Below are positions 8,470 through 49,472 of a DNA stretch of 64,000 bases, piece after piece. The notes beneath the pieces are model-generated. The model searched no databases. It was not told the DNA's origin and worked only from the letters and a program-made list of their open reading frames with translations. The translations under genes were made by a program, and so were the position numbers. Each line of letters opens with the position of its first letter. Position 1 is the first letter of the stretch. Location: NCBI GenBank assembly GCA_003647275.1, contig QMMN01000008.1, positions 1,675 through 65,674 on the forward strand, given 5' to 3'. This DNA is from Deltaproteobacteria bacterium. Its GTDB lineage: Bacteria; Desulfobacterota; Desulfobacteria; Desulfobacterales; C00003060.

Positions 8470-9894
<1,425 letters not shown>

Positions 9895-14949: not shown

Positions 14950-15025
14950 GTGAAGCCTCCCTGCGCTTCCGCACGGGGGTTCTGCCTGACGGCAGCGCTT
15001 CGCGTCCGGGGAACAGGCCGGTCAA
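14950..15025 (-). repeat. R1 structured intergenic repeat, copy A
   Basis: The reverse complement reads TTGACCGGCCTGTTCCCCGGACGCGAAGCGCTGCCGTCAGGCAGAACCCCCGTGCGGAAGCGCAGGGAGGCTTCAC. Confidence 0.85.
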
Positions 15026-25137: not shown

Positions 25138-26384
25138 AAAAGACCATCACGGACATGACACGGCGTGCAAAAGAGGCCGCCAAGGTGGTGGCCCGGCTGG
25201 GTACGCAAAAAAAAGACGAGGCCTTAGAACGCATTGCCCAAAAGCTCCTTGACGAGGCCGCCACGATCAAGCGGGAAAACGAAAAGGATCTTGAATATGC
25301 CAGAGAAAAAGGGCTTTCAGAGGCCATGATCGACCGACTCACGGTGAGCGATGCGGTCATCGAGTCGATGGCAAACGGCCTGCGCGACGTGGTAAAGCTT
25401 CCTGACCCGGTCGGGCGGGTGACAGGCATGTGGGTGCGCCCCAATGGCCTCCAAGTCGGTCGAGTGCGCATACCCCTTGGCGTTATCGGAATGATCTATG
25501 AGTCGAGACCGAATGCCACCATCGATGCTGCTGGGCTTTGCTTGAAGGCCGGCAATGCGGTGATCCTGCGTGGTGGATCAGAGGCCTTTAACTCAAATAC
25601 CATTCTGGCCGAGATCATCCAGGGGGCGCTTCGGGAAACGGGCTTACCCGAAGCAGCTGCCCAGGTGGTCCCAGTACGCGATAGGATCGCCGTGAACGTG
25701 TTACTTGCCCAAGAGGAATATGTGGATCTGATCATCCCGAGGGGGGGGGAGGGGCTGATCCGTTTTGTGGTTGAAAATTCCAAGATTCCGGTCCTCAAGC
25801 ATTATAAAGGGGTCTGCCACGTTTATGTGGATGAGCGCGCAGACCTTGGTATGGCCGAAAAGATTTCGTACAACGCCAAGGTGCAGCGGCCAGGTGTTTG
25901 CAATGCCATGGAGACCCTGCTGGTGCATGAGGCCGTAGCAGCATCATTTCTCCCGCCTATGGCCAAGCGTTTCAAGGAAGCAGGCGTGGAGCTGCGGGGG
26001 TGTCCTAAGACCTGTCAGATTGTGTCGGAGGCCAAGAAAGCCACTGAGGAGGATTGGGCCATGGAGTATCTGGACTTGATCCTTGCCGTCAAGGTGGTCG
26101 CCTCTATGGAAGAGGCCACGAGCCATATTGCGCGATACGGTTCCGCCCACACCGAGGCGATTGTGACATCAGACTATACCCGGGCCCGGCGGTTCCTCCA
26201 TGAGGTGGATGCTTCCGTGGTCCTGGTGAATGCATCCACGCGGTTCAATGATGGGGGCGAACTCGGTTTGGGCGCTGAGATCGGGATCAGTACTTCCAAA
26301 CTCCATGCTTATGGGCCGATGGGATTGGAAGAGTTGACAACCACCAAGTTTGTGGTTTTTGGAGACGGGCAGGTCAGAACTTAA
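25128..26384 (+). CDS. proA: glutamate-5-semialdehyde dehydrogenase
   Basis: ALDH-family layout, IYESRPNAT, and catalytic [10 protein letters not shown]. Overlaps the proB stop. Confidence 0.93.
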
Positions 26385-26385
26385 C

Positions 26386-26405
26386 GGGCTGTTGCCCAAA
26401 CAGCC
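26386..26405 (+). repeat. R2 motif hairpin GGGCTGTTGCCCAAACAGCC immediately after the proA stop
   Basis: Stem GGCTGT/ACAGCC with loop TGCCCAA. The same GGCTGTTGCCCAAAC string occurs at 11514-11532 and 13748-13762, and inverted at 13969-13985. Confidence 0.65.
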
Positions 26406-26494
26406 GTCCACCTGGCATGAGGCTGACAAACACCAAAAGAGGGTTGAAGCTTCAATTGTCGTGATTTGGACAAGAGCTTGATAAAGGGGTATTT

Positions 26495-33422: not shown

Positions 33423-33493
33423 CGGACATCATCAAATCATTACCCTGCTCACAAGGCAGGATTATTTACTGCACAATACAGATCAACGATCAT

Positions 33494-33561
33494 TCAAGTT
33501 TCAGCCCTGTTTTGGTGTTTGTTTTCTTCATACCAGGTGTACGGCTGTTTGTGCAACAGCC
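33494..33561 (+). repeat. R5 repeat of about 70 nt, copy 1 (ends in a GGCTGTT...AACAGCC hairpin)
   Basis: TTCAAGTTTCAGCCCTGTTTTGG...CATACCAGGTGTACGGCTGTTTGTGCAACAGCC. Confidence 0.75.
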
Positions 33562-34743: not shown

Positions 34744-35397
34744 GTGTCAGAAAAACAATATCTCATCGATGCCATAACCGTGCATGACTCCTGGCGGCTA
34801 TTCAAGATTTTAGCCGAATTTGTTGATGGTTTCGAAGCACTCTCCGACATCTATCCGTGCGTTTCCATCTTTGGTTCTGCAAGAGTCCAACCAGGCGATG
34901 AAGCCTATGAAAAGGCCGTCGTGATTGCCAGAAAATTGGCTGAAAATGGCTTCAATGTCATGACCGGCGGTGGTCCTGGCATCATGGAAGCTGCCAACAA
35001 AGGGGCCAAGGAAGGAGGCGCCAAATCTATTGGGGCAAATATACTTTTACCCTTGGAGCAGGAAGGGAATCCCTATGCAGATATCAGGCTTGAATTTAAG
35101 TATTTTTTTGTAAGAAAGGTCATGCTGATAAAATATGCTCAAGCGTATGTAGGCATGCCAGGCGGTTTTGGGACGCTGGACGAAATCTTTGAAGCCATTA
35201 CCCTGATTCAAACCAAACGCATCAAGCCTTTTCCGGTAATTCTTGTGGGATCGGATTATTGGAATAGTCTATGGGACTGGGTCCGCAGCACCCTTTTGGA
35301 GCGCAAACTGGTTTCTTTGGAAGATATGGACTTGGTCACCATACTCGATGACCCAGACGAAGTGGTAAGGAGGATCAGGCAAGTGGTGATCGTCTAG
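34744..35397 (+). CDS. LOG family (TIGR00730) nucleotide N-glycosidase-like protein
   Basis: GTG start. TGGGPGIMEAANKGA and PGGFGTLDE signature motifs. Confidence 0.88.
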   Translation: MSEKQYLIDAITVHDSWRLFKILAEFVDGFEALSDIYPCVSIFGSARVQPGDEAYEKAVVIARKLAENGFNVMTGGGPGIMEAANKGAKEGGAKSIGANILLPLEQEGNPYADIRLEFKYFFVRKVMLIKYAQAYVGMPGGFGTLDEIFEAITLIQTKRIKPFPVILVGSDYWNSLWDWVRSTLLERKLVSLEDMDLVTILDDPDEVVRRIRQVVIV

Positions 35398-37191: not shown

Positions 37192-38886
37192 TTATTCAAT
37201 GCCTCCTAATTCTTTACATCTTGCAATATAATAAGCTGCTTCTTTTGAATGTTGAGATTTAAGCAAACATACAAGCGCTCTGTTATAGTCTCCTAAATTC
37301 ATATAGTTTATTCCCAAACATAAGTTTAATTCCTCGCTTTCCGGGAAAAGCTTAACTCCTTCAGCCAAAACCTTGACAGCCTCTTCAAACGCCTTCCTGT
37401 TTTGTTGAATAAGCCCTAGGCCCAAATAAGCACGTTGATTTGGATAATAAGCCAATGATTTCTTGAATAGTTTTTCGGCAATTTTGTCTTTGTCCTTAAT
37501 AACGTCAATGTTCGAATAGTCCCCATGGCTAAAGGTCATGCCAAGCCTTGAACAAAAATCAGAATGCATTTCGTAAAGTTCCTCTTTATCTATAAGGCGA
37601 ACCGACTCGACGAAATGATTCATATTTTCGTATAACTCGGTTCTAATTCTTTTCCCAAAGGCAAAAACCAATTCTTGCGATAAATTCGGATCTGTTTCAA
37701 AGTAGCAAATACCTTCTATTCTTTTTAGCCAAATGTCGTCCGTCTCATTAAATTTCCTCTGAAAGTCTAAATAAAGCTTGGTACCCGGATATATCTCAAG
37801 AATATATAATACACAAATCAGGGGTTTTATTTGATGTATCAACTCAATCGTATCTTGAATCGTTTCCCAGCTTTCCTCTGGAGAGCCGTATATAAAGTAA
37901 GCCCGCGCTAAAATTCCGTATTTGTAGGTGAGGGCAAAGGCATTCTCGATTTGATCGGTTCTAATGTTTTTATTCAACAGGTCTCTTATTTTTTCAGAAC
38001 CACTTTCGATGCCATAACTTATCTGAGTACAACCGGCTTTTCGCATCCAATATAAAATGTCCTCATCAATATAAGTTACACGCGAGATGGCAACCCAGGC
38101 GATTTTAAGACGCTTGGCAATAATTCTCTTACAAACGTCAATCACCCTGTTTTTGTTAATCGTAAAATTATCATCTGAAACATAGAAAAAAGTGATACCT
38201 TTTTTGTAAAGTAGTTCTAAATGCTTAACGAAGTTTTCTGGTGAATGAAATCTTATTTTATGTCCCCAAAATTTCGGACTTCCACAAAAAGTACATTTCC
38301 AGGGGCATCCCCGAGAAAATGAAACATGCTGATATTCAAAATACTTTGCCGGGATTGGCAATTCGTCAAGGTCTTGAATGACTTCAACATCTTTTGTTTT
38401 GACGACTTTTCCGTTTTTTCTAAAAGCGATTCCGTTAATATTCTCAATAGATTCATGGCTTCCCTTGTCAATCGACTTTACCAAGTTTAAAAAAGTATAT
38501 TCTCCCTCACCGATGACAACAAAATCTATTTGTGGAAAATGTTTCAAAAAATGTTCCCATAAAAAACTCGCAGCAACGCCACCAAAGATGATCTTTATAT
38601 CGGGATTGATTTGTTTGGCTATTTGAGCAATCTCCACGCCACCCCAACGATTTGCATTTAAAATAGAAAAACCAATGATGTCAGGCTTCTTTTCAAGTAA
38701 AACCTCAGCGATTTTTTGAGGCGTTTTATGGATATTGTACCAATTCAATACTTCGACATCATAATGATTTTCTTTTAAAACAGCACCAATATAATAGACT
38801 CCTATGGGTACTGGTTTTATGTCTTCTTCTTGAGATCGGTCATAAAGCGGATAGGGATAAATCAGTAATATTTTCATTCTTGTCAT
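37192..38886 (-). CDS. B12-binding-domain radical SAM protein with C-terminal TPR repeats
   Basis: N-terminal Rossmann-like B12-binding region (KILLIYPY...GFSILNANRWGG). Canonical CPWKCTFC (CxxxCxxC). TPR-like C-terminus (AYLGLGLIQQNRKAFEEA...LGINYMNLGDYNRA). Confidence 0.85.
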   Translation of the reverse strand: MTRMKILLIYPYPLYDRSQEEDIKPVPIGVYYIGAVLKENHYDVEVLNWYNIHKTPQKIAEVLLEKKPDIIGFSILNANRWGGVEIAQIAKQINPDIKIIFGGVAASFLWEHFLKHFPQIDFVVIGEGEYTFLNLVKSIDKGSHESIENINGIAFRKNGKVVKTKDVEVIQDLDELPIPAKYFEYQHVSFSRGCPWKCTFCGSPKFWGHKIRFHSPENFVKHLELLYKKGITFFYVSDDNFTINKNRVIDVCKRIIAKRLKIAWVAISRVTYIDEDILYWMRKAGCTQISYGIESGSEKIRDLLNKNIRTDQIENAFALTYKYGILARAYFIYGSPEESWETIQDTIELIHQIKPLICVLYILEIYPGTKLYLDFQRKFNETDDIWLKRIEGICYFETDPNLSQELVFAFGKRIRTELYENMNHFVESVRLIDKEELYEMHSDFCSRLGMTFSHGDYSNIDVIKDKDKIAEKLFKKSLAYYPNQRAYLGLGLIQQNRKAFEEAVKVLAEGVKLFPESEELNLCLGINYMNLGDYNRALVCLLKSQHSKEAAYYIARCKELGGIE

Positions 38887-39296
38887 TCAGCGGTTGGTTG
38901 GTTATAGCCGTTCCAGTGATTTTTGCACGTAACTTTTATCCTGCTACGCATCTCCCAGTGTACTCACAAAAAAGGTGTGTGGTCGTCCCTGGAACATCCA
39001 TGCCTGCCTTGCGTGGCACGAATTTCCTATAGCACCAAACAAATAGAAAATCAAAATATGGATGTCTCCAGGCGTTTGCCAACATTTTCCTGGCTATGGG
39101 AACGGTCGATAAAGGGTATGGTCATTGCCCGAACTTAGCTCTAAAGTTTTGGGGGAGATTTGCCGATTCATAATAGGAGGCGTGGGCATCATTGCCGATT
39201 GACGGGATAGCGTGCCGCCCCTTCCTTTCCCATGATGGATTCCAACGCTATGGTGAGAGTCCCAATGTCTGTTTGAGACTTATCTTCACAGGAGCA

Positions 39297-40064
39297 ATGA
39301 CCAACAGTCGTTCCATACAGGCATTAAGTAATCCGATGCTTCATTACAGGCTCGATCTGGGTGAACCCGGGGTTGCTACCCCCTCTCGAGCCAGCCAGAG
39401 CATTATGAGGGTTACAGCCCATGAACTTCAAAACATACAAAGATTTAAGGCAGAGGCTGCCCGCGAAGGCGGCATCGTTGTATATCATGGCGTTAAATTA
39501 AATTTGAGCTACGAGGGCGCCTATTTGGCCGCCATAGGTGGACTCTCGCAGGCCAGGGTTGTATATCCTAACGGAAAACAAGATGTTTTTAACCAGGCGC
39601 CAGGCGGTTCCGAAGAAGACCCCCCGATTTCAAAAGAGGCTGAACCTTTAAAGGAGGCCTTGGAGACCCCAGAAAACGTTACGAATGACCTGCTTTCAAG
39701 CTTGGCTACACAGTCAACCATTACACAGTTACAAGTAGAAAAAGCACAACTACAACAGAAAATAAGAGAAGCACAAGCGAATACCACGTCGTCAATAGCC
39801 GGGCCGTACGAGCCTTCATCATTGACTTCAGGAGAAAGTGGCTTGTCAGGCAAAAATGGCACAAGTTCGCCTGTTCAAACCTCTCCAAGAGACGCAATCC
39901 GGGAATATCAACTTCAGCAAAAGATATGGAAATTAAACCAGGAAATTGCCCGTCTGTCTCTTGAATCCAATCCCGGAAAAGGCGAGGAGCCCCCGGATGC
40001 CCCTTCAAGGCTTTCTTCCATGGACCCTTCCCTTGCATCTTCTCTCTTGGATGTATTAGCTTAA
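39297..40064 (+). CDS. hypothetical protein with low-complexity Ser/Pro/Gln-rich, coiled-coil C-terminal half
   Basis: ATG at 39297 right after AGGAG (short spacing). The ORF-track TTG start at 39192 is doubtful. No family confidently recognised. Confidence 0.5.
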   Translation: MTNSRSIQALSNPMLHYRLDLGEPGVATPSRASQSIMRVTAHELQNIQRFKAEAAREGGIVVYHGVKLNLSYEGAYLAAIGGLSQARVVYPNGKQDVFNQAPGGSEEDPPISKEAEPLKEALETPENVTNDLLSSLATQSTITQLQVEKAQLQQKIREAQANTTSSIAGPYEPSSLTSGESGLSGKNGTSSPVQTSPRDAIREYQLQQKIWKLNQEIARLSLESNPGKGEEPPDAPSRLSSMDPSLASSLLDVLA

Positions 40065-40074
40065 CCCCGATTGG

Positions 40075-40149
40075 GTGAAGCTCCCCGCTTTAAAAGGCGG
40101 GGGTTTTGCCTTCCGGCAGCGCTTCGCGTGCAGGGCACGGGCCGGTCAA
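40075..40149 (-). repeat. R1 structured intergenic repeat, copy B
   Basis: The reverse complement reads TTGACCGGCCCGTGCCCTGCACGCGAAGCGCTGCCGGAAGGCAAAACCCCCGCCTTTTAAAGCGGGGAGCTTCAC. Confidence 0.85.
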
Positions 40150-40281
40150 ATCGTAGTGATTACAGATAAATCATTGATAAAAATTCGAGTTTCCGGTAAC
40201 GTCACAATACGTTAACTTTGATATCAACTTCAGGTACAGGGCAGTTCCTCTGCTCTGTGCAACTTTTTTGGAGATCTTGGT

Positions 40282-42096
40282 GTGTCTTTAAACGAAAGCC
40301 CTGACTGCAAGATCGAAGCGATCATTCGTGCAGATGCAACAGAGGTCGTTGCACGGGTCTCCGCGTACCTTGAGGACGAACAAATGCGGTATTTCTCGCG
40401 CAACCAAGACTGCCTGACAACAGACCTGCACAGCACCAAGGCCAGGGTTGGCATCAATCAGGCAAAGCTGAGTAATTTTGAACTAAAAGGAAACAAAATC
40501 TCATATGAAGCCAGGTTCTGGTTCTATATTCCCGAATATGCCGTGGGCTGCACCATTGACCAGTTGATGCTCCCTGGCCTTGAGGTTGGCAAGATTTATC
40601 TGAGAAACCCAAAACTAAAATACGCTGCCGAGGAATTGATCAACCTCATTTCAAACCGCACCATCATAGTTCCAAAGGGAACGAAAGTGTTGGAAGAAGG
40701 CATTCTGGCTGTGCCGGTGATGCCCTTTGTTCATCTTCCCGATCCCCGTGTGTTGACACCCGATTATCTGAAGGCTGTGGTGATGAAAAAGATTCCTCGG
40801 GAGGATCTCTATTTTGCCCAGCCGGAGCAAAAGGTGGATCGGGTCATCGTGCCGGTCGGAAGCGGGGTGATATCTCATACGAGCCTGTTTACACAGCAAA
40901 ACGAGATTTATATCCTAGATCATGAGCACACGGATGCCAGGGTCGGGAGCAAACATACCAATGGGATCATATATCTTGAACTCATGGGAGACGATAAAGA
41001 CATCGTCAAAGAGAGGGTTCATATCGAAGTCTACAAACCGACCCTGGCGCAACACAGTGTAAAAAAACGGTTCTATATCGACCTGCGAGCTTCCCTGCTA
41101 GGCAGATTGTACGAAGAGGGGGCTGTGGATGATCATACCATTGCGGCCATCCGTGAAGCTGAAGGGCAAAGATTCATCAAGCTAAACGAAAGGTATGACC
41201 AACTGCTCCATGATCTACAGCCTGACACATCGTTGATCCTTCAGGATTTTCCCAACCGACGCCTTGCTTCTTACCTCATTGTGGCTGCCGACATGGGCCT
41301 CATTAGCGACCTGACGTTCAGAAGGGCTCCTCAAGAGGAATACTTTTTCAGGTCAGAGGACCTTGCCTTTATGGATACGTTACAGAATATGGGCGTGGAG
41401 ATTTACTGGAAAAATCCCTTGCAAGGAGATCTGGTCTTATATAAGCGATTCTTTATGAGGTCTTCTGTCATCCCGTCTTTCAATGAGGCCTTCAGTTCAA
41501 GAAAGCTCGCTGCGATTTATGGAACAGCAGGCAAAGTAGACGCTGATACCCAGAAAGAAATTGTGGACAGCGTTAAATCCTTCAAGGAGTTCCACGGCGG
41601 CATCTGTGGCGTCCTCACAGGCGGCAACACCGGGAGCATTATGTCCTTTGTATCGGAAACCGCGGCCTCTCTCGGCATGCTCTCTGGCGCTGTATACTGG
41701 AAGATTCCCGGGGTGGACATTGACCCCCATGTGGATTTTGCAGCGTATCTGTCCCGATATGACCTGCTGGAAAGGCAGGAAATTTTATCTGAAACCACTG
41801 AGGCAGACATCTATTTCAAAGGCGGGGTGGGTACCAACCTTGAAAATGCGATCACTTTTGTGAAAAAGAAACTTGGTATCGGCCATTACAAGCCACAAAT
41901 TTTTGTAGGTGATTTCTACAAGCCTCTTCAGGACTGGCTTAACCACCTGGCATCCGAGGGGATGGCAGACCCCAGAGTTTTTGAAAGTTGCTATTTCATC
42001 AAGCATGGCCGCGAGATCTTCGAAACACTTTGCACGCACTTCGGGTCGGAAGACAAAATGATCCACGAAGTCTCAGTGAATGAAACCTGGTCATGA
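40282..42096 (+). CDS. 604-aa fusion protein: unrecognised N-terminal region of about 400 aa plus a C-terminal LOG/SLOG-type Rossmann domain
   Basis: GTG start 8 nt after GGAG. The C-terminal 198 aa carry the two LOG signatures in the correct order: VLTGGNTGSIMSF (about 41617) and KGGVGTNLE (41821-41844). They are followed by KPQIFVGDFYKPLQDWL, which resembles the LOG helix. Confidence 0.8.
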   Translation: MSLNESPDCKIEAIIRADATEVVARVSAYLEDEQMRYFSRNQDCLTTDLHSTKARVGINQAKLSNFELKGNKISYEARFWFYIPEYAVGCTIDQLMLPGLEVGKIYLRNPKLKYAAEELINLISNRTIIVPKGTKVLEEGILAVPVMPFVHLPDPRVLTPDYLKAVVMKKIPREDLYFAQPEQKVDRVIVPVGSGVISHTSLFTQQNEIYILDHEHTDARVGSKHTNGIIYLELMGDDKDIVKERVHIEVYKPTLAQHSVKKRFYIDLRASLLGRLYEEGAVDDHTIAAIREAEGQRFIKLNERYDQLLHDLQPDTSLILQDFPNRRLASYLIVAADMGLISDLTFRRAPQEEYFFRSEDLAFMDTLQNMGVEIYWKNPLQGDLVLYKRFFMRSSVIPSFNEAFSSRKLAAIYGTAGKVDADTQKEIVDSVKSFKEFHGGICGVLTGGNTGSIMSFVSETAASLGMLSGAVYWKIPGVDIDPHVDFAAYLSRYDLLERQEILSETTEADIYFKGGVGTNLENAITFVKKKLGIGHYKPQIFVGDFYKPLQDWLNHLASEGMADPRVFESCYFIKHGREIFETLCTHFGSEDKMIHEVSVNETWS

Positions 42097-42138
42097 AGTT
42101 GCCATAGTTCGGTGAGCCCTTATCCGGCATGGTGAACG

Positions 42139-43440
42139 ATGACACAGGGCTTGGCTGGTATGATTACCAAAGAAAATATAAGGCAATATTTGGACAAGTT
42201 ATCTTCGGGGATCGGCTCTGAACAAGGCCAGATGCCTTCTCATGTGTGGCAGAAATTTCATGAATACATCGTCACTCACTACAAGCGCCTCGATAAAGAG
42301 ACCCGTGCTTATGCTAATGAGATCTTTGATCAAATGGAGGCCAGTTTAGAGCAAAGAATCGAATCTCTTCCCGAGAGTTCGGAGAAAAAGACACTCAGCC
42401 GGAAGCTCGCCGTGGTTCGGGGGGAACGTCCACCTTTACCCGTGCTCTATCTGGACACCCCTGTCATTGAAGTGATGATCAAGTATGCCCTGGGACAACA
42501 CCTCCCCCGGTCCACAGCAGAAAATTCCGAGGCCTTATGCAAGGGAATCCTGGCCCTGGTCAAGGACGAAAAACTCATTTGTCCTGAAGACAACTTTCAT
42601 CGAGAAGCCCTTCAGCTGGGCGGCATCCGGGCCAGGGAAGGGCTGAACGCCATTAGGCGGCTCTCCCACGGCTTATCTTTCAAGCACAGCCAGGCCATAG
42701 AAGATTTTCAAATCTTCAGGGCACTTCGTGGCTTTATAGATGGCTATGGGCCAATCGACTACAAGCGGTTTTGGCAAGACGCCTTTGAGACTGAGACCGT
42801 CAATGCCATCGTGAAGAAACACGCATCTATAACATTTAAAGATATCCTGGCTCTTGCTGAAAAGCCAGGCCCGCCAGAAGATCAGCAAGCAAGGCCCTCG
42901 TCCCTTTCCACTCGGCTTAGGATTAGATATGATGAAGCCTCTCTAAAATATGAACAGAAGCTGCAACAAAGATCTACAAGGCATCTAAGGGATCTGGTCA
43001 GGCTCGGCATGAAATACCAAAACAGAATGAGGGAAGCGCAAAAACAGCACCTCGACGGTTTCTGGGCAGGTCAGAAACTGGATCTGCCTATTGCCCTGTG
43101 GAACGGCTATGGCGGAAAACCAGAGGGTCTGGAAGGGCTTGTATCTTTTTATGAATCCGAATACTTCAGAAATATCCCGGCTATCAAAATCAAATGGGAC
43201 ATCTGGCATACCCTTTCCGCAGATCATGCAGGTGGCCTAAATAGACTGACCGGGCCTGCAGATGTAAACATTCTATCCTATCTCCTTCCTTATACGGATA
43301 TCATGATCCTGGGTCGTAAGATGACGGATGTGGTCAGAGACAAACTGAGGTTCGACCTTATGTTCAAGACAGCCATCTACAGCATGGACGAGCACGATCT
43401 GATTATGGCGGCCCTCAAGGAGATTGCTCGCGCCGAGTAA
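42139..43440 (+). CDS. hypothetical protein (433 aa), partner of the LOG-fusion gene
   Basis: Clean ORF starting 42 nt after the previous stop. No family recognised. There is a weak PIN-like flavour (VLYLDTPVIE at residue about 106, LPYTDIMILGRKM at residue about 387). Confidence 0.65.
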   Translation: MTQGLAGMITKENIRQYLDKLSSGIGSEQGQMPSHVWQKFHEYIVTHYKRLDKETRAYANEIFDQMEASLEQRIESLPESSEKKTLSRKLAVVRGERPPLPVLYLDTPVIEVMIKYALGQHLPRSTAENSEALCKGILALVKDEKLICPEDNFHREALQLGGIRAREGLNAIRRLSHGLSFKHSQAIEDFQIFRALRGFIDGYGPIDYKRFWQDAFETETVNAIVKKHASITFKDILALAEKPGPPEDQQARPSSLSTRLRIRYDEASLKYEQKLQQRSTRHLRDLVRLGMKYQNRMREAQKQHLDGFWAGQKLDLPIALWNGYGGKPEGLEGLVSFYESEYFRNIPAIKIKWDIWHTLSADHAGGLNRLTGPADVNILSYLLPYTDIMILGRKMTDVVRDKLRFDLMFKTAIYSMDEHDLIMAALKEIARAE

Positions 43441-43595
43441 GGAAATCATAGGCGCCCCGTGTTGGGTCAGGTAATCGACAAAAGGCTTCATCTCCTTTCC
43501 GGTTAAGGCCTCGCTTCTCAAAGCCTTTGGAAATATCGTATTTGAGGCAAGTATGCAGAGGAAGGTTACGGCGGGATTAGCGCTCGCTGTGCATT

Positions 43596-43660
43596 TTCAA
43601 GTTTGGTCCCTCTTTTGGCTTGCTTCCCTCATACCAGGTGCACGGCTGTTTGGGCAACAG
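43596..43660 (+). repeat. R5 repeat of about 70 nt, copy 2
   Basis: TTCAAGTTTGGTCCCTCTTTTGG...CATACCAGGTGCACGGCTGTTTGGGCAACAG. Confidence 0.75.
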
Positions 43661-43811
43661 TGCGTTTGGAATTGACTCTGCCGGCTTTTTCCTATAATCT
43701 CGCGTGTGCATATAAAGGGAGATCTTTGCATAACTCCTTTTCACTCCTTTATATGAGTTTTTTGACCCATGCACGGGCTTGCTCACTAAATCCTAGCACG
43801 GAGTGAAGCTG

Positions 43812-43935
43812 TGCGCTCAAACTCGGCCCAAGGGCCTCAAACAGTTTAGGATTTGCCCACTAAAGTGGGCCATTCACTTCGCCCGGATGGGTGCCCTAAA
43901 AAACTCATAATTGCCGCTCAAACGAGTTATGCAAA
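43812..43935 (+). repeat. R3 core repeat, second copy
   Basis: TGCGCTCAAACTCGGCCCAAGGGCCTCAAACAGTT...CACTTCGCC...CCGCTCAAACGA parallels 13861-13962. Confidence 0.6.
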
Positions 43936-43983
43936 GATTTCAAAGGATTGCGAACACAAGCCTATTCCCCATAGGATCATCAA

Positions 43984-44541
43984 ATGAACCCTCAAACCCT
44001 TGTTGAGACCATTTTAGACGAAAATCGAAATCTCCTGACAAGGGTTTCAAAGGAGCAGGTTGACTATCTTGTCAAGGCACTTGACAATTCAGAGAGGATC
44101 TTCTGCGCTGCCCAGGGGCGGTCTGGATACATCCTGCGGTGTTTTTGCATGCGGTTAATGCAGTTCGGATATCAAACCTTCTTTGTTGGTGAAACCATAA
44201 CCCCGAAGATTGGCAAAGGAGACATGCTGATTGTGCTTTCCGGTTCCGGGCAAACCAACTTGACCCAAGAATGGATCAGGGTTGCCCGGCAGCAGGGAGC
44301 AACGACTTTTGGTATCATAGGGGTTGAAGATTCCCCGATCGGAAGGGCCCTCGATTACAGCCTTTCCCTGCCGGCAGGGTCAAAGTTGGGGTTTTCCGGG
44401 GCGTCTTCCTCAATACAACCTCCGGGGTCTTTGTTTGAGCAGGCGGCCTTTGTCTTGCTGGAAACCATCGTGCTGGCATTATACCAGATGCGGGGGTGTG
44501 ATCCTCAGGGGATACTGGACCACCATGCGAATTTAGAATAA
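43984..44541 (+). CDS. hxlB: 6-phospho-3-hexuloisomerase (SIS domain)
   Basis: 185 aa. IFCAAQGRSGYILRCFCMRLMQFG...VLSGSGQT is a PHI-type SIS pattern. Adjacent to an HPS gene. Confidence 0.8.
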   Translation: MNPQTLVETILDENRNLLTRVSKEQVDYLVKALDNSERIFCAAQGRSGYILRCFCMRLMQFGYQTFFVGETITPKIGKGDMLIVLSGSGQTNLTQEWIRVARQQGATTFGIIGVEDSPIGRALDYSLSLPAGSKLGFSGASSSIQPPGSLFEQAAFVLLETIVLALYQMRGCDPQGILDHHANLE

Positions 44542-44587
44542 TCTTGCATATGCATCTTTGTTTTTCATTTATCTATGAGGGGTGTGA

Positions 44588-45874
44588 ATGAAGCCTGTTT
44601 TGCAACTGGCCCTTGATTTTGTTGACTTAAAACGGGCCGTAAAGAGTGCACAAGCCGGGATCGCTGGCGGCGTGGATTGGATCGAGGTCGGCACCCCCTT
44701 GGTCAAGAGTGAGGGGCTCCAAGCCGTACGGGAGCTGAGGCGTTTGTTCCCCCATGTGACCATCGTGGCCGACATGAAGATTATGGATGCAGGCCGCATC
44801 GAAGTTGAGACCGCGGCCAAGTCGGGAGCCAACATCGTGGATGTCCTTGGTGCTGCCAGCGACGCCACGATCCGGGAATGCATACAGGCCGGGAAAAATT
44901 ATGGGGCCAGGATTGTCGTGGACCTGATTGCCGTCAAAGACCCTGTGACTCGGGCCAAGCAGGTTGAGGATTTTGGGGCCGATTACATTACAGTCCATTG
45001 TTCCATAGACGAACAAATGGAGGGAAAAGACCCCTTTGAATCCCTGCGCAGGGTGGCCGAGGCTGTTTCCCTGCCCATAGGGGTTGCTGGGGGAATTAAC
45101 TCTGAAACAGCGCCCCGCGCACTGGAAGCAGGGGCATCCATTGTTATCGTGGGCGGAGCGATTACCAAGGCAGTTGATCCCACGGAGGCGTCCCATAACA
45201 TCAAAAAGGCCATGGAGGAAGGGGTCGCCATCCCGACCAAGCTCTTTAAAAGAGGGACTGAGGCAGCGATTCGAGATATCCTCGAACAGGTTTCCGCAGC
45301 CAATTTATCAGATGCCTTACACAGAGGTGGCGTCTTGGAAGGGATCCGTCCCTTGTTTCAAGGGATCAGGATGGCAGGCCGGGCCGTGACAGTCAGGACC
45401 TATCCGGGGGACTGGGCCAAACCTGTTGAAGCCATTGATATTGCTGAAAAGGGGGATGTGATCGTGGTTGATGCAGGCGGGGTTGGCCCGGCTATCTGGG
45501 GTGAGTTAGCCACACATTCTGCACTGCAGAAAGGGGTGGCAGGGGTGGTCATCGACGGCGCCATCCGTGATACCTATGATATCGCCCAGATGAAATTTCC
45601 CGCTTTTGCAAGATGGATCATGCCCAATGCCGGGGAGCCGAAAGGTTTTGGCGAGATTGGTGTGCCCGTGAAGGTGGGTAATCGCTGGGTGGAAAATGGC
45701 GACTGGATTCTCGGGGACGATGACGGTGTCGTGGTTTTGCCAAGGGCAATGGCGACGGAATATGCGAATCGCAGCATGGATGTGTTAGAAAGAGAAAACC
45801 GAATCCGTGAAGAAATCAAAGAGGGCAGCACCCTTAGCAAGGTCACGGAACTGCTACGCTGGGAGAAGAAATAG
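44588..45874 (+). CDS. hxlA: 3-hexulose-6-phosphate synthase fused to an RraA-family domain
   Basis: N-terminus MKPVLQLALDFVDL...DWIEVGTPL...ADMKIMDAG (OMP-decarboxylase-fold HPS). The C-terminal half has GDVIVVDAGG...GVVIDGAIRD (RraA/DlpA-like). Confidence 0.8.
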   Translation: MKPVLQLALDFVDLKRAVKSAQAGIAGGVDWIEVGTPLVKSEGLQAVRELRRLFPHVTIVADMKIMDAGRIEVETAAKSGANIVDVLGAASDATIRECIQAGKNYGARIVVDLIAVKDPVTRAKQVEDFGADYITVHCSIDEQMEGKDPFESLRRVAEAVSLPIGVAGGINSETAPRALEAGASIVIVGGAITKAVDPTEASHNIKKAMEEGVAIPTKLFKRGTEAAIRDILEQVSAANLSDALHRGGVLEGIRPLFQGIRMAGRAVTVRTYPGDWAKPVEAIDIAEKGDVIVVDAGGVGPAIWGELATHSALQKGVAGVVIDGAIRDTYDIAQMKFPAFARWIMPNAGEPKGFGEIGVPVKVGNRWVENGDWILGDDDGVVVLPRAMATEYANRSMDVLERENRIREEIKEGSTLSKVTELLRWEKK

Positions 45875-49396: not shown

Positions 49397-49472
49397 TTGA
49401 CCGGCTCGCTCCCCGGACGCAAAGCACTGCCGTAAGGCAGAACCCCCGTGCGGAAGCACGGGGAGGCTTCAC
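49397..49472 (+). repeat. R1 structured intergenic repeat, copy C
   Basis: TTGACCGGCTCGCTCCCCGGACGCAAAGCACTGCCGTAAGGCAGAACCCCCGTGCGGAAGCACGGGGAGGCTTCAC. Confidence 0.85.

Follow-up and report, generated by a model that had tools for sequence, protein, structure and literature searches.

The window analysed here is a stretch of 64,000 nucleotides from contig QMMN01000008.1 of a Deltaproteobacteria bacterium (assembly GCA_003647275.1), and all coordinates are counted from its first letter. It carries two adjacent open reading frames (ORFs), gene A and gene B, which an earlier reading of the window (the original prediction) described as a repeat-flanked cassette of a LOG-domain fusion and an unfamiliar partner. 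Both ORFs are present with exactly the lengths and positions given there, as are the two LOG signatures, TGGNTGSIM (from 41617) and GGVGTNLE (41821-41844). Our main finding is that gene A is a well-conserved core-chromosomal gene in which a predicted LOG-type nucleotide N-glycosidase domain is fused to two N-terminal domains, D1 and D2, and that D1 very probably belongs with the dCTP deaminase (Dcd)/dUTPase superfamily. The genes and their domains are as follows.

40282-42096, forward strand: gene A, GTG start, 604 residues, a fusion of D1, D2 and LOG (ORF)

40282-40614, forward strand: D1 unit 1 (residues 1-111), like the Dcd/dUTPase superfamily, with S51-x3-R55-x-G57 (hhalign)

40615-41067, forward strand: D1 unit 2 (residues 112-262), Dcd-like and more divergent, with H216, A219 and E233 (hhalign, marginal)

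41089-41475, forward strand: D2 (residues ~270-398), an alpha/beta domain of unknown family (secondary structure of the model)

41476-42051, forward strand: LOG (lysine-decarboxylase-like) nucleotide N-glycosidase domain, predicted (residues ~399-590; PF03641, PDB profile, Foldseek)

42139-43440, forward strand: gene B, the partner, 433 residues, or 426 if it starts at 42160 (ORF)

The C-terminal domain is recognisable by profile and by structure. Residues 490-581 match Pfam model PF03641 with 34.2 bits, above the gathering score of 27. In a comparison of the gene A family profile with PDB, type-II LOGs were the best matches (9US2, 5WQ3, 5ZI9 and 1WEK, with E-values down to 2.6e-23), and 16 LOG structures were matched at E<1e-4. 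An AlphaFold2 model of gene A was computed with a divergent alignment as input and reached a predicted local distance difference test (pLDDT) value of 88.5 and a predicted template-modelling score of 0.87. Using Foldseek, its C-terminal ~200 residues were placed on LOG structures with template-modelling (TM) scores of 0.73-0.83 and E=1e-10, examples being 9US2 (E=1.2e-10) and 3SBX, 5ZBK and 2A33 (all at TM 0.83). Conservation was counted over 29 divergent members of the gene A family with only 20-35% identity, the set to which all counts out of 29 refer. G447, G448, M454, R498, G515, G517 and E521 are kept by every one of these relatives, and T518 by 28. Within the motifs GGxxGxM, ERK/ERQ and GGxGTxxE, residues M454, R498, T518 and E521 match M190, R241, T261 and E264 of PpnN, and an alignment with the Mycobacterium tuberculosis (Mtb) LOG protein likewise pairs the LOG residues of gene A with its ERK and GGxGTxxE motifs. 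In PpnN, the substitutions M190A, R241A and E264A abolish activity and T261A impairs it, and a single conserved mechanism has been proposed for PpnN and LOG (bioRxiv 10.1101/2025.04.13.648610). From the intact catalytic signature we conclude that the C-terminal domain is predicted to be an active N-glycosidase rather than a ligand sensor of the ThsA type. The original suggestion that the motifs fit a nucleotide N-glycosidase holds at this level of prediction, with M454, R498 and E521 all universal in the family.

Residues 1-405 of gene A match none of the models of Pfam, NCBIfam, PADLOC and PHROGs. In that respect the description of this region as ~400 unrecognised residues was right, but profile comparison does relate D1 to the Dcd superfamily. 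In the AlphaFold2 model, the N-terminus consists of D1 (residues 1 to ~255), which is mostly beta, a disordered linker (257-268) and then D2. An alignment of divergent D1 sequences displays the patterns RSRxARLG and H..A..LDP......LEF.N, reminiscent of dCTP deaminase. D1 was compared using hhalign with a Dcd-family profile of 13-14 sequences, comprising E. coli dcd, four sequences from viral contigs and nine annotated phage or archaeal-virus dCTP deaminases. Metagenomes scanned for further Dcd diversity yielded only copies like that of E. coli. The whole of D1 matched with a probability of 86.5% and residues 1-111 with a probability of 92.7% (E=4e-7), and a second profile comparison gave 89.3% (E=2e-6). 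The score of 44.4 compares with 13.2±2.4 (maximum 23.1) for 60 column shuffles and 12.8 for reversed D1, and the control domains D2 and LOG reached 0.1% each against the same profile. Residues 112-264 are co-linear with residues 1-159 of Dcd, covering the Dcd N-terminus and the H..A..DP..LEF.N block.

The residues that align are those on which Dcd enzymes depend. Residue numbers for Dcd are those of E. coli, and their roles were taken from invariance in the family and from PMC5519681. All 13 sequences of the Dcd alignment have S111, R115 and E138, and conservation of G117 and D128 is almost complete. The counterparts in D1 are listed below.

Dcd S111: D1 S51, kept in 26 of 29 relatives

Dcd R115: D1 R55, kept in 24 of 29 relatives

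Dcd G117: D1 G57, kept in 27 of 29 relatives

Dcd H121: D1 H216, kept in 27 of 29 relatives

Dcd A124: D1 A219, kept in 28 of 29 relatives

Dcd E138: D1 E233, kept in 26 of 29 relatives

Local spacings are the same in D1 and Dcd, both for S-x3-R-x-G and for the 17 residues from His to Glu. A219 is presumably the counterpart of the pyrimidine-pocket Ala of the bifunctional Mtb Dcd:dut. In that enzyme the Ala lines the pocket and the A115F variant is inactive (PMC5519681). The original idea of a nucleotide-centred protein is thereby strengthened, with a LOG domain at the C-terminus and a dCTP-deaminase-like domain at the N-terminus.

The simplest reading of the alignments is that D1 is a tandem duplication in which unit 1 would have kept motif II and unit 2 motif III together with the deaminase Glu, the two forming one composite pocket. 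A single barrel broken by an insertion of ~158 residues could also account for them. When the full-length model was searched against BFVD, Foldseek returned weak matches to M84, ORF10 and G10 (E 0.04-0.07, ~290 columns), which are herpesvirus dUTPase-derived proteins (PMC8961515, PMC2693105). In the herpesvirus monomeric dUTPases, the fold is duplicated in one chain, the motifs are redistributed and one composite site is left (PMC8961515). At least one gene that encodes D1 only is complete within its contig, and D1 is therefore an autonomous module.

D2 carries an invariant P324 and W376, and F323 is shared by 27 of 29 relatives. Profile searches against PDB found no relatives of D2, nor did hhalign comparisons with D1, LOG or Dcd. 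A degenerate LOG/SLOG duplicate was considered for D2 and discarded (hhalign, 0.2%). A PpnN-type architecture was likewise discarded for gene A, as PF14793 (DUF4478) and PF11892 (DUF3412) gave no match at E<=0.1. Neither accessory domain being detected, the N-terminus is indeed unlike the DUF4478-LOG-DUF3412 layout of PpnN, as had been suggested, and PpnN structures align with the gene A model over the LOG core only (TM 0.30-0.36, normalised to the target). An exhaustive HMMER search of 1.84 billion representatives with residues 1-405 recovered only 56 relatives, nearly all of them 575-690 residues long and ending in LOG. It follows that the fusion is an ancient but uncommon one. Its named members come from Candidatus Dadabacteria, Woesearchaeota and Nanoarchaeota, in addition to Desulfobacterales. 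Our literature search found no paper that links Dcd or dUTPase with LOG or SLOG.

Close relatives of gene A form more than 120 protein clusters at 77-86% identity. The gene occurs in 51 species-level genomes (69-86% identity), essentially all of which are metagenome-assembled genomes (MAGs) of uncultured Desulfobacterales/Desulfobacteria. Among orthologues, D1 is conserved at 82%, D2 at 76% and LOG at 88%, and over the same genome pairs gene A is better conserved than 10 of 11 neighbouring gene families. Its neighbours include genes for a histidine phosphatase, an alpha/beta-hydrolase, two HD phosphohydrolases, peptide deformylase, DsrC, a phosphoribosyltransferase (PRTase), elongation factor G (EF-G), a ParA-like ATPase and a GNAT protein. 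Some loci are syntenic with def, dsrC, EF-G, trmD and rplS, and distant family members adjoin ilv/leu genes, dnaK/grpE, or ribosomal-protein and Spt4 genes. The ancestral neighbourhood of the pair (loci L059, L060, L061 and L001 of our set) groups several genes that act on nucleotides or phosphate: His_Phos_1 lies upstream, two HD phosphohydrolases or peptide deformylase lie downstream, and a PRTase is four genes away. This arrangement is weakly suggestive of nucleotide salvage, or may be mere synteny. One orthologue (82% identity) lies on the 1.9-kb contig CBDUUM010000229.1, which was binned as 'uncultured Methanosarcinales archaeon'. Most likely the copy is not archaeal and reached this bin as contamination from a Desulfobacterales organism that co-occurs with the archaeon.

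Gene A appears to have its own promoter and a conserved structured leader, to which the following features were assigned.

40174-40202, forward strand: putative sigma-70-like promoter (-35 TTGATA, 17-nucleotide spacer, -10 TAACGT), read from the sequence, in a conserved block

40234-40260, forward strand: leader hairpin (11-bp stem, 5-nucleotide loop), followed by a U-tract at 40264-40269; a conserved, terminator-like site

40270-40274, forward strand: Shine-Dalgarno (SD) sequence GGAGA, 7 nucleotides 5' of the GTG; GGAG is invariant in the leader alignment

The block ATTGATAAAA...GGTAAT(A/G)T is conserved 5' of orthologues that have different upstream genes, and the promoter-like consensus across orthologues is TTGATA-N17-TAAYRT. 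The hairpin lies ~30 nucleotides 3' of the promoter, and promoter, hairpin, U-tract and SD recur together despite the differing upstream genes. The same elements are present in the orthologous leaders of loci L005, L011, L013, L016, L017, L023-L025, L028-L032, L035, L047, L048 and L055. Across 19 orthologous leaders, pairing in the hairpin is kept in 86% of cells as compared with 25-51% in slid controls. One pair switches between AU and CG in eight sequences, probably as a single evolutionary event. The folding z-score of the leader is -2.8. A riboswitch was considered and dropped, as the leader had no match in Rfam at E<=1, and an extension of the hairpin that sequesters the SD, seen in the minimum-free-energy fold of the window, is not conserved in orthologues. 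Possible roles of the leader are attenuation, stabilisation of the transcript by a 5' stem-loop, or service as a binding site.

Gene B is a much narrower gene. Judging from an alignment of 24 homologues, the usual start is probably at the position of Met8 (42160), which may therefore be the start in the window as well. Searches of 5.8 billion proteins, one of them with a profile, yielded only ~97 clusters, which belong to a single clade and carry no annotation. There is no match in Pfam, NCBIfam, PADLOC or PHROGs, and the partner thus remains, as first described, without a recognisable family. Its AlphaFold2 model (pLDDT 70) gave no fold match to PDB in Foldseek, where the best E-value was 1.9 and the VapC11 PIN domain ranked 22nd (E=5.9). 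The PIN-like pattern that the original prediction had seen in gene B was not borne out: Pfam scans of the 24 homologues found no PIN domain at E<=10, hhalign against a genuine PIN_9 protein gave 0.5%, and a profile search of PDB was also empty. An ADP-ribosyltransferase-exoenzyme match appeared in 3 of 24 members (E>=0.056) over an N-terminal helical stretch and was judged to be noise. The alignment of the 24 homologues contains many invariant charged residues, and gene B may encode an enzyme of some kind.

Where gene B occurs with gene A, it is always directly downstream on the same strand, and of the 18 loci with both genes, 12 have a gap of 0-63 nucleotides. Since this order is found across at least four different flanking contexts, the A-B operon is ancestral in the clade. 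Co-conservation of the pair, whose failure the original prediction had named as a point against it, holds only in part: for adjacency, and not as an obligatory partnership. About 17 species-level loci have gene B, while ~20 others lack it although there is space for the gene; some of these have identical synteny, and one whole subclade is among them. Gene B also occurs without gene A in two loci (L060 and L061). It also evolves faster than gene A (63-65% versus 82% identity). The link between the two is thus real yet non-obligatory. On the closed 2.38-Mb Desulfobacterales MAG chromosome CP070769.1 (L016, 7829-8206), gene B looks split: tblastn covers residues 1-126 in one frame, and a separate 262-residue C-terminal product is in the database. 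It is probably a pseudogene or frameshift, which is consistent with ongoing loss of gene B. A gene B near the distant family members was also sought, and the gene B profile scored 0.1% against the downstream proteins of loci L158 and L159 (hhalign). On the Woesearchaeota contig L158, a PIN_9-domain gene that is unrelated to gene B (8908-9321) lies directly 3' of a distant family member. The best reading is that gene B is a clade-specific, dispensable accessory gene that is usually co-transcribed with gene A, a role that we infer from its distribution and position.

The original prediction had gone on to propose that the pair is an inserted cassette with the logic of ThsA, in which gene A and gene B would form a nucleotide-sensing or nucleotide-depleting module. 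Taken as a module for anti-phage defence or abortive infection, with gene B in the part of effector or partner, this has some points in its favour: defence by nucleotide depletion is known, gene A does join two nucleotide-acting domains, and gene B is variably present, faster-evolving and an orphan rich in invariant charged residues. The genomic evidence points the other way. PADLOC gave no match for gene A, gene B or the upstream ORF. Across more than 55 neighbourhoods there was no defence gene, TIR protein, integrase or transposase, and neighbours were housekeeping or metabolic in Desulfobacterales, Woesearchaeota and other lineages. Searches of plasmids, phages and IMG/VR contigs found no relatives, and PHROGs was also empty. 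Few genes around gene A are as well conserved; its codon usage is native and its synteny that of a core gene, its LOG domain resembles enzymes rather than ThsA-type sensors and keeps the catalytic residues, and gene A persists without gene B just as gene B persists without gene A. We regard a ThsA-like defence module as very improbable and have abandoned it.

The case for insertion had rested in part on dispersed repeats that bracket the pair. The repeats are real, and they are listed here without a strand.

40098-40149: dispersed intergenic repeat outside the gene pair (R1 of the original prediction), with copies at 14974-15025 (87%) and 49397-49448 (inverted)

43596-43666: dispersed intergenic repeat of a different family, outside the gene pair, with copies at 33493-33559 (82%) and 26383-26455 (inverted, 78%)

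All copies are intergenic, but the two flanks belong to unrelated families and do not form a matching pair. The flanking repeats are dispersed elements like repetitive extragenic palindromes and not termini. The z-scores for GC content at third codon positions (GC3) are +0.07 for gene A and -0.30 for gene B, and the codon-usage distance is under the window mean. No integrase or transposase was found near the gene pair. With host-typical GC3 and codon usage, unrelated repeats, no recombinase and synteny with core genes, the notion of an inserted cassette had to be given up.

Our preferred, still tentative, reading is that gene A encodes a core two-site pyrimidine-nucleotide enzyme that combines a Dcd-type pocket with an active LOG N-glycosidase. 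The LOG site would cleave the N-glycosidic bond of a nucleoside 5'-monophosphate to yield the free base and (deoxy)ribose 5-phosphate. In D1, the composite pocket (Ser-Arg-Gly of unit 1 and His/Ala/Glu of unit 2) would bind a cytosine nucleotide and would most likely deaminate it. Acting together, the two sites could take a cytosine nucleotide to a uracil nucleotide and then to free base and sugar phosphate, in the service of salvage or pool sanitation, with D2 as a linker or regulatory domain. The substrate, catalysis by D1 and the coupling of the two sites are what we infer from the domain identities and conserved residues. A single polypeptide coupling Dcd-type deamination to LOG cleavage would be a new route for the disposal or salvage of cytosine or modified-cytosine nucleotides, a consequence that we consider possible but doubtful. 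Such a bifunctional enzyme would use a duplicated dUTPase fold with a composite site, by analogy with the herpesvirus monomeric enzymes.

Several observations weigh against this reading. Dcd enzymes act on deoxynucleoside triphosphates (dNTPs) and LOG enzymes on nucleoside monophosphates (NMPs), a mismatch of substrates. Because of this mismatch, and because the window's clade is without the motif-III Asp that makes the monophosphate, a channelled two-step reaction would need a change of specificity. Only 13 of 29 relatives have the Asp in question, that of the IDPG motif used for dUTP hydrolysis, and RVGSKH stands at this site in the window's clade. Unit 2 is marginal, with a score of 25.5-26.9 against 13.3±2.8 (maximum 26.1) for shuffles, and 1 of 40 shuffles reached the score. 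Pfam dUTPase and DCD models gave no match to D1 at E<=10 in 17 members. Foldseek with the gene A model found no canonical dUTPase or Dcd in BFVD, which should be rich in dUTPases, and the PDB matches listed for the full-length model were all LOG, so the fold assigned to D1 is a prediction from profiles. On the side of the LOG domain, NCBIfam model TIGR00730 gave 33 bits against a cut-off of 96, so the stricter model is missed by a wide margin and the domain is divergent. LOG enzymes bind the ribose 2'/3'-hydroxyls through a third catalytic residue, a Glu (PaLOG E74, PpnN E223). It aligns near D479/D481, and the gene A family varies at the column of PaLOG E74, with P, S, D, E, N, Q and other residues.

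Our main alternative is an allosteric arrangement like that of PpnN. LOG would then be the sole catalytic site, and D1 with D2 would be a non-catalytic sensor of pyrimidine (d)NTPs that gates LOG, such that degradation of NMPs follows the state of the nucleotide pool. The mismatch between dNTPs and NMPs disappears, and the loss of the motif-III Asp in 16 of 29 family members speaks in favour of this version. Dcd enzymes themselves are feedback-regulated by dTTP, which binds in the same pocket. Precedent comes from PpnN, where two accessory domains bind (p)ppGpp and gate the active site (bioRxiv 10.1101/2025.04.13.648610), and from the herpesviruses, whose duplicated dUTPase-derived proteins have repeatedly turned non-enzymatic (PMC8961515). 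What speaks for catalysis by D1 is that the Dcd invariants S111, R115 and E138 all have conserved counterparts (24-26 of 29), and in so divergent a family, retention of the general-base Glu would be less expected of a site that only binds. Plain dUTPases, to judge from E. coli Dut, are not known to carry this deaminase Glu. We consider the allosteric arrangement a credible alternative, though somewhat less likely than the two-site enzyme.

The same residues bear on a third view, in which gene A is an ordinary LOG paralogue, D1 and D2 serve only oligomerisation or as a scaffold, and the likeness to Dcd reflects distant ancestry without nucleotide binding. That D1 and D2 went unrecognised in library and structural searches is compatible with this view, as is the fact that LOG enzymes differ chiefly in oligomeric state (type I versus type II). 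The residues that are conserved in D1, however, are the equivalents of polar Dcd active-site residues and not of a hydrophobic core or interface; D1 is about as conserved among orthologues as LOG (82% versus 88%), and it also occurs as a stand-alone gene. We judge a pure scaffold to be improbable and retain the two-site enzyme as our working interpretation.

The surroundings of the pair in the window are partly peculiar to this genome. The stand-alone LOG paralogue that had been noted at 34744-35397 is real and carries PF18306 and PF03641. The gene described as an AT-rich B12-rSAM neighbour is AT-rich indeed (GC 0.36, GC3 z=-3.6). This B12-binding radical-SAM/TPR gene (37192-38886, reverse strand) is a strong compositional outlier and, among the loci compared, is found in this genome only. 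It is this gene, rather than the LOG pair, that looks horizontally acquired. Upstream of gene A, an ORF of 290 residues with a TTG start (39192-40064, forward strand) is low-complexity and coiled-coil-like and is without a family match. It is a gene call in the source assemblies and is not found upstream of any gene A orthologue, and a clean terminator hairpin follows it at 40082-40103. The intergenic region 3' of gene B (43441-43983, 543 nucleotides) is unusually long and has no match in Rfam. Besides the dispersed repeat at 43596-43666, it holds a local inverted repeat, 43719-43763 / 43898-43941 (78%), which is possibly a remnant like a miniature inverted-repeat transposable element. Further downstream (43984-45874, forward strand) are a SIS-domain gene and a gene for a fusion of OMPdecase-family and RraA-like parts, assigned by Pfam domains, which adjoin the pair in this genome only. 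Judged by the Pfam domains alone, the two genes could belong to the ribulose-monophosphate pathway, the first as a 6-phospho-3-hexuloisomerase and the second as a 3-hexulose-6-phosphate synthase.

LOG/PpnN and Dcd/dUTPase enzymes are both central to the control of nucleotide pools and have so far been studied as separate proteins. A conserved fusion of a Dcd-like domain with LOG frames a testable hypothesis, that of a new metabolic branch in which pyrimidine nucleotides are broken down or their pool is sanitised. DPANN archaea depend on salvage, and the relevance would be greatest for organisms such as these genome-reduced archaea; the other carriers are anaerobic Desulfobacterales and Dadabacteria. 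If the duplication is true, D1 would be, as far as our literature search showed, the first non-viral duplicated dUTPase-fold domain with redistributed motifs. D2 and partner B represent two undescribed domain families among the conserved proteins of unknown function. The locus also holds a caution for defence mining, as a nucleotide enzyme with unknown domains, an unknown neighbour and repeats nearby can be core metabolism. We rate the architecture of gene A as new and its component kinds of enzyme, LOG and Dcd-like, as already known.

Among known systems, the closest is the LOG family of cytokinin riboside 5'-monophosphate phosphoribohydrolases, of which the type-II LOGs (C. glutamicum 5WQ3, N. 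meningitidis YgdH 9US2 and T. thermophilus TT1465 1WEK) have the same fold as the C-terminal ~190 residues of gene A. The GGxxGxM, ERK/ERQ and GGxGTxxE motifs, in which the catalytic Arg and Glu lie, are common to both. Gene A differs from the LOG family in being three times longer, with ~400 extra N-terminal residues in two domains, in having lost the Pro of PGGxGTxxE and in the variable position of the ribose-hydroxyl Glu. In comparison with Dcd and the bifunctional Dcd:dut, D1 keeps counterparts of S111, R115, E138, G117, H121 and A124 at equal spacing. It is, however, ~260 residues long and apparently made of two units, as against ~190 residues in Dcd, its motifs are divided between the units, it is fused to other domains, and it shows no sign of a homotrimer or of a C-terminal lid. 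The herpesvirus dUTPase-related proteins, ORF10/LF1 'G10' and the UL82-family protein M84, supplied the only dUTPase-derived Foldseek matches. They and the monomeric dUTPases are proteins of eukaryote-infecting viruses, either dUTPase-type without the deaminase Glu or non-enzymatic, and the weak match implies no common origin. Like the ThsA (Thoeris) and SLOG-sensor effectors, gene A has a Rossmann-like domain of the SLOG superfamily at one end of a multi-domain protein. In ThsA, SLOG senses a ligand without catalysing a reaction, is joined to a SIR2 or transmembrane effector and is paired with a TIR protein, whereas gene A has an enzyme-type LOG domain with an intact catalytic signature, and no TIR neighbour was found. 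PpnN (E. coli YgdH), a (p)ppGpp-regulated pyrimidine/purine nucleotide 5'-monophosphate nucleosidase with a housekeeping role in nucleotide-pool homeostasis, resembles gene A in holding its LOG core inside a larger multi-domain protein whose non-catalytic domains would be expected to govern entry to the active site. The accessory domains of PpnN (DUF4478/PAG1 and DUF3412/PAG2) lie on both sides of the core, whereas those of gene A are both N-terminal and one of them is Dcd-like.

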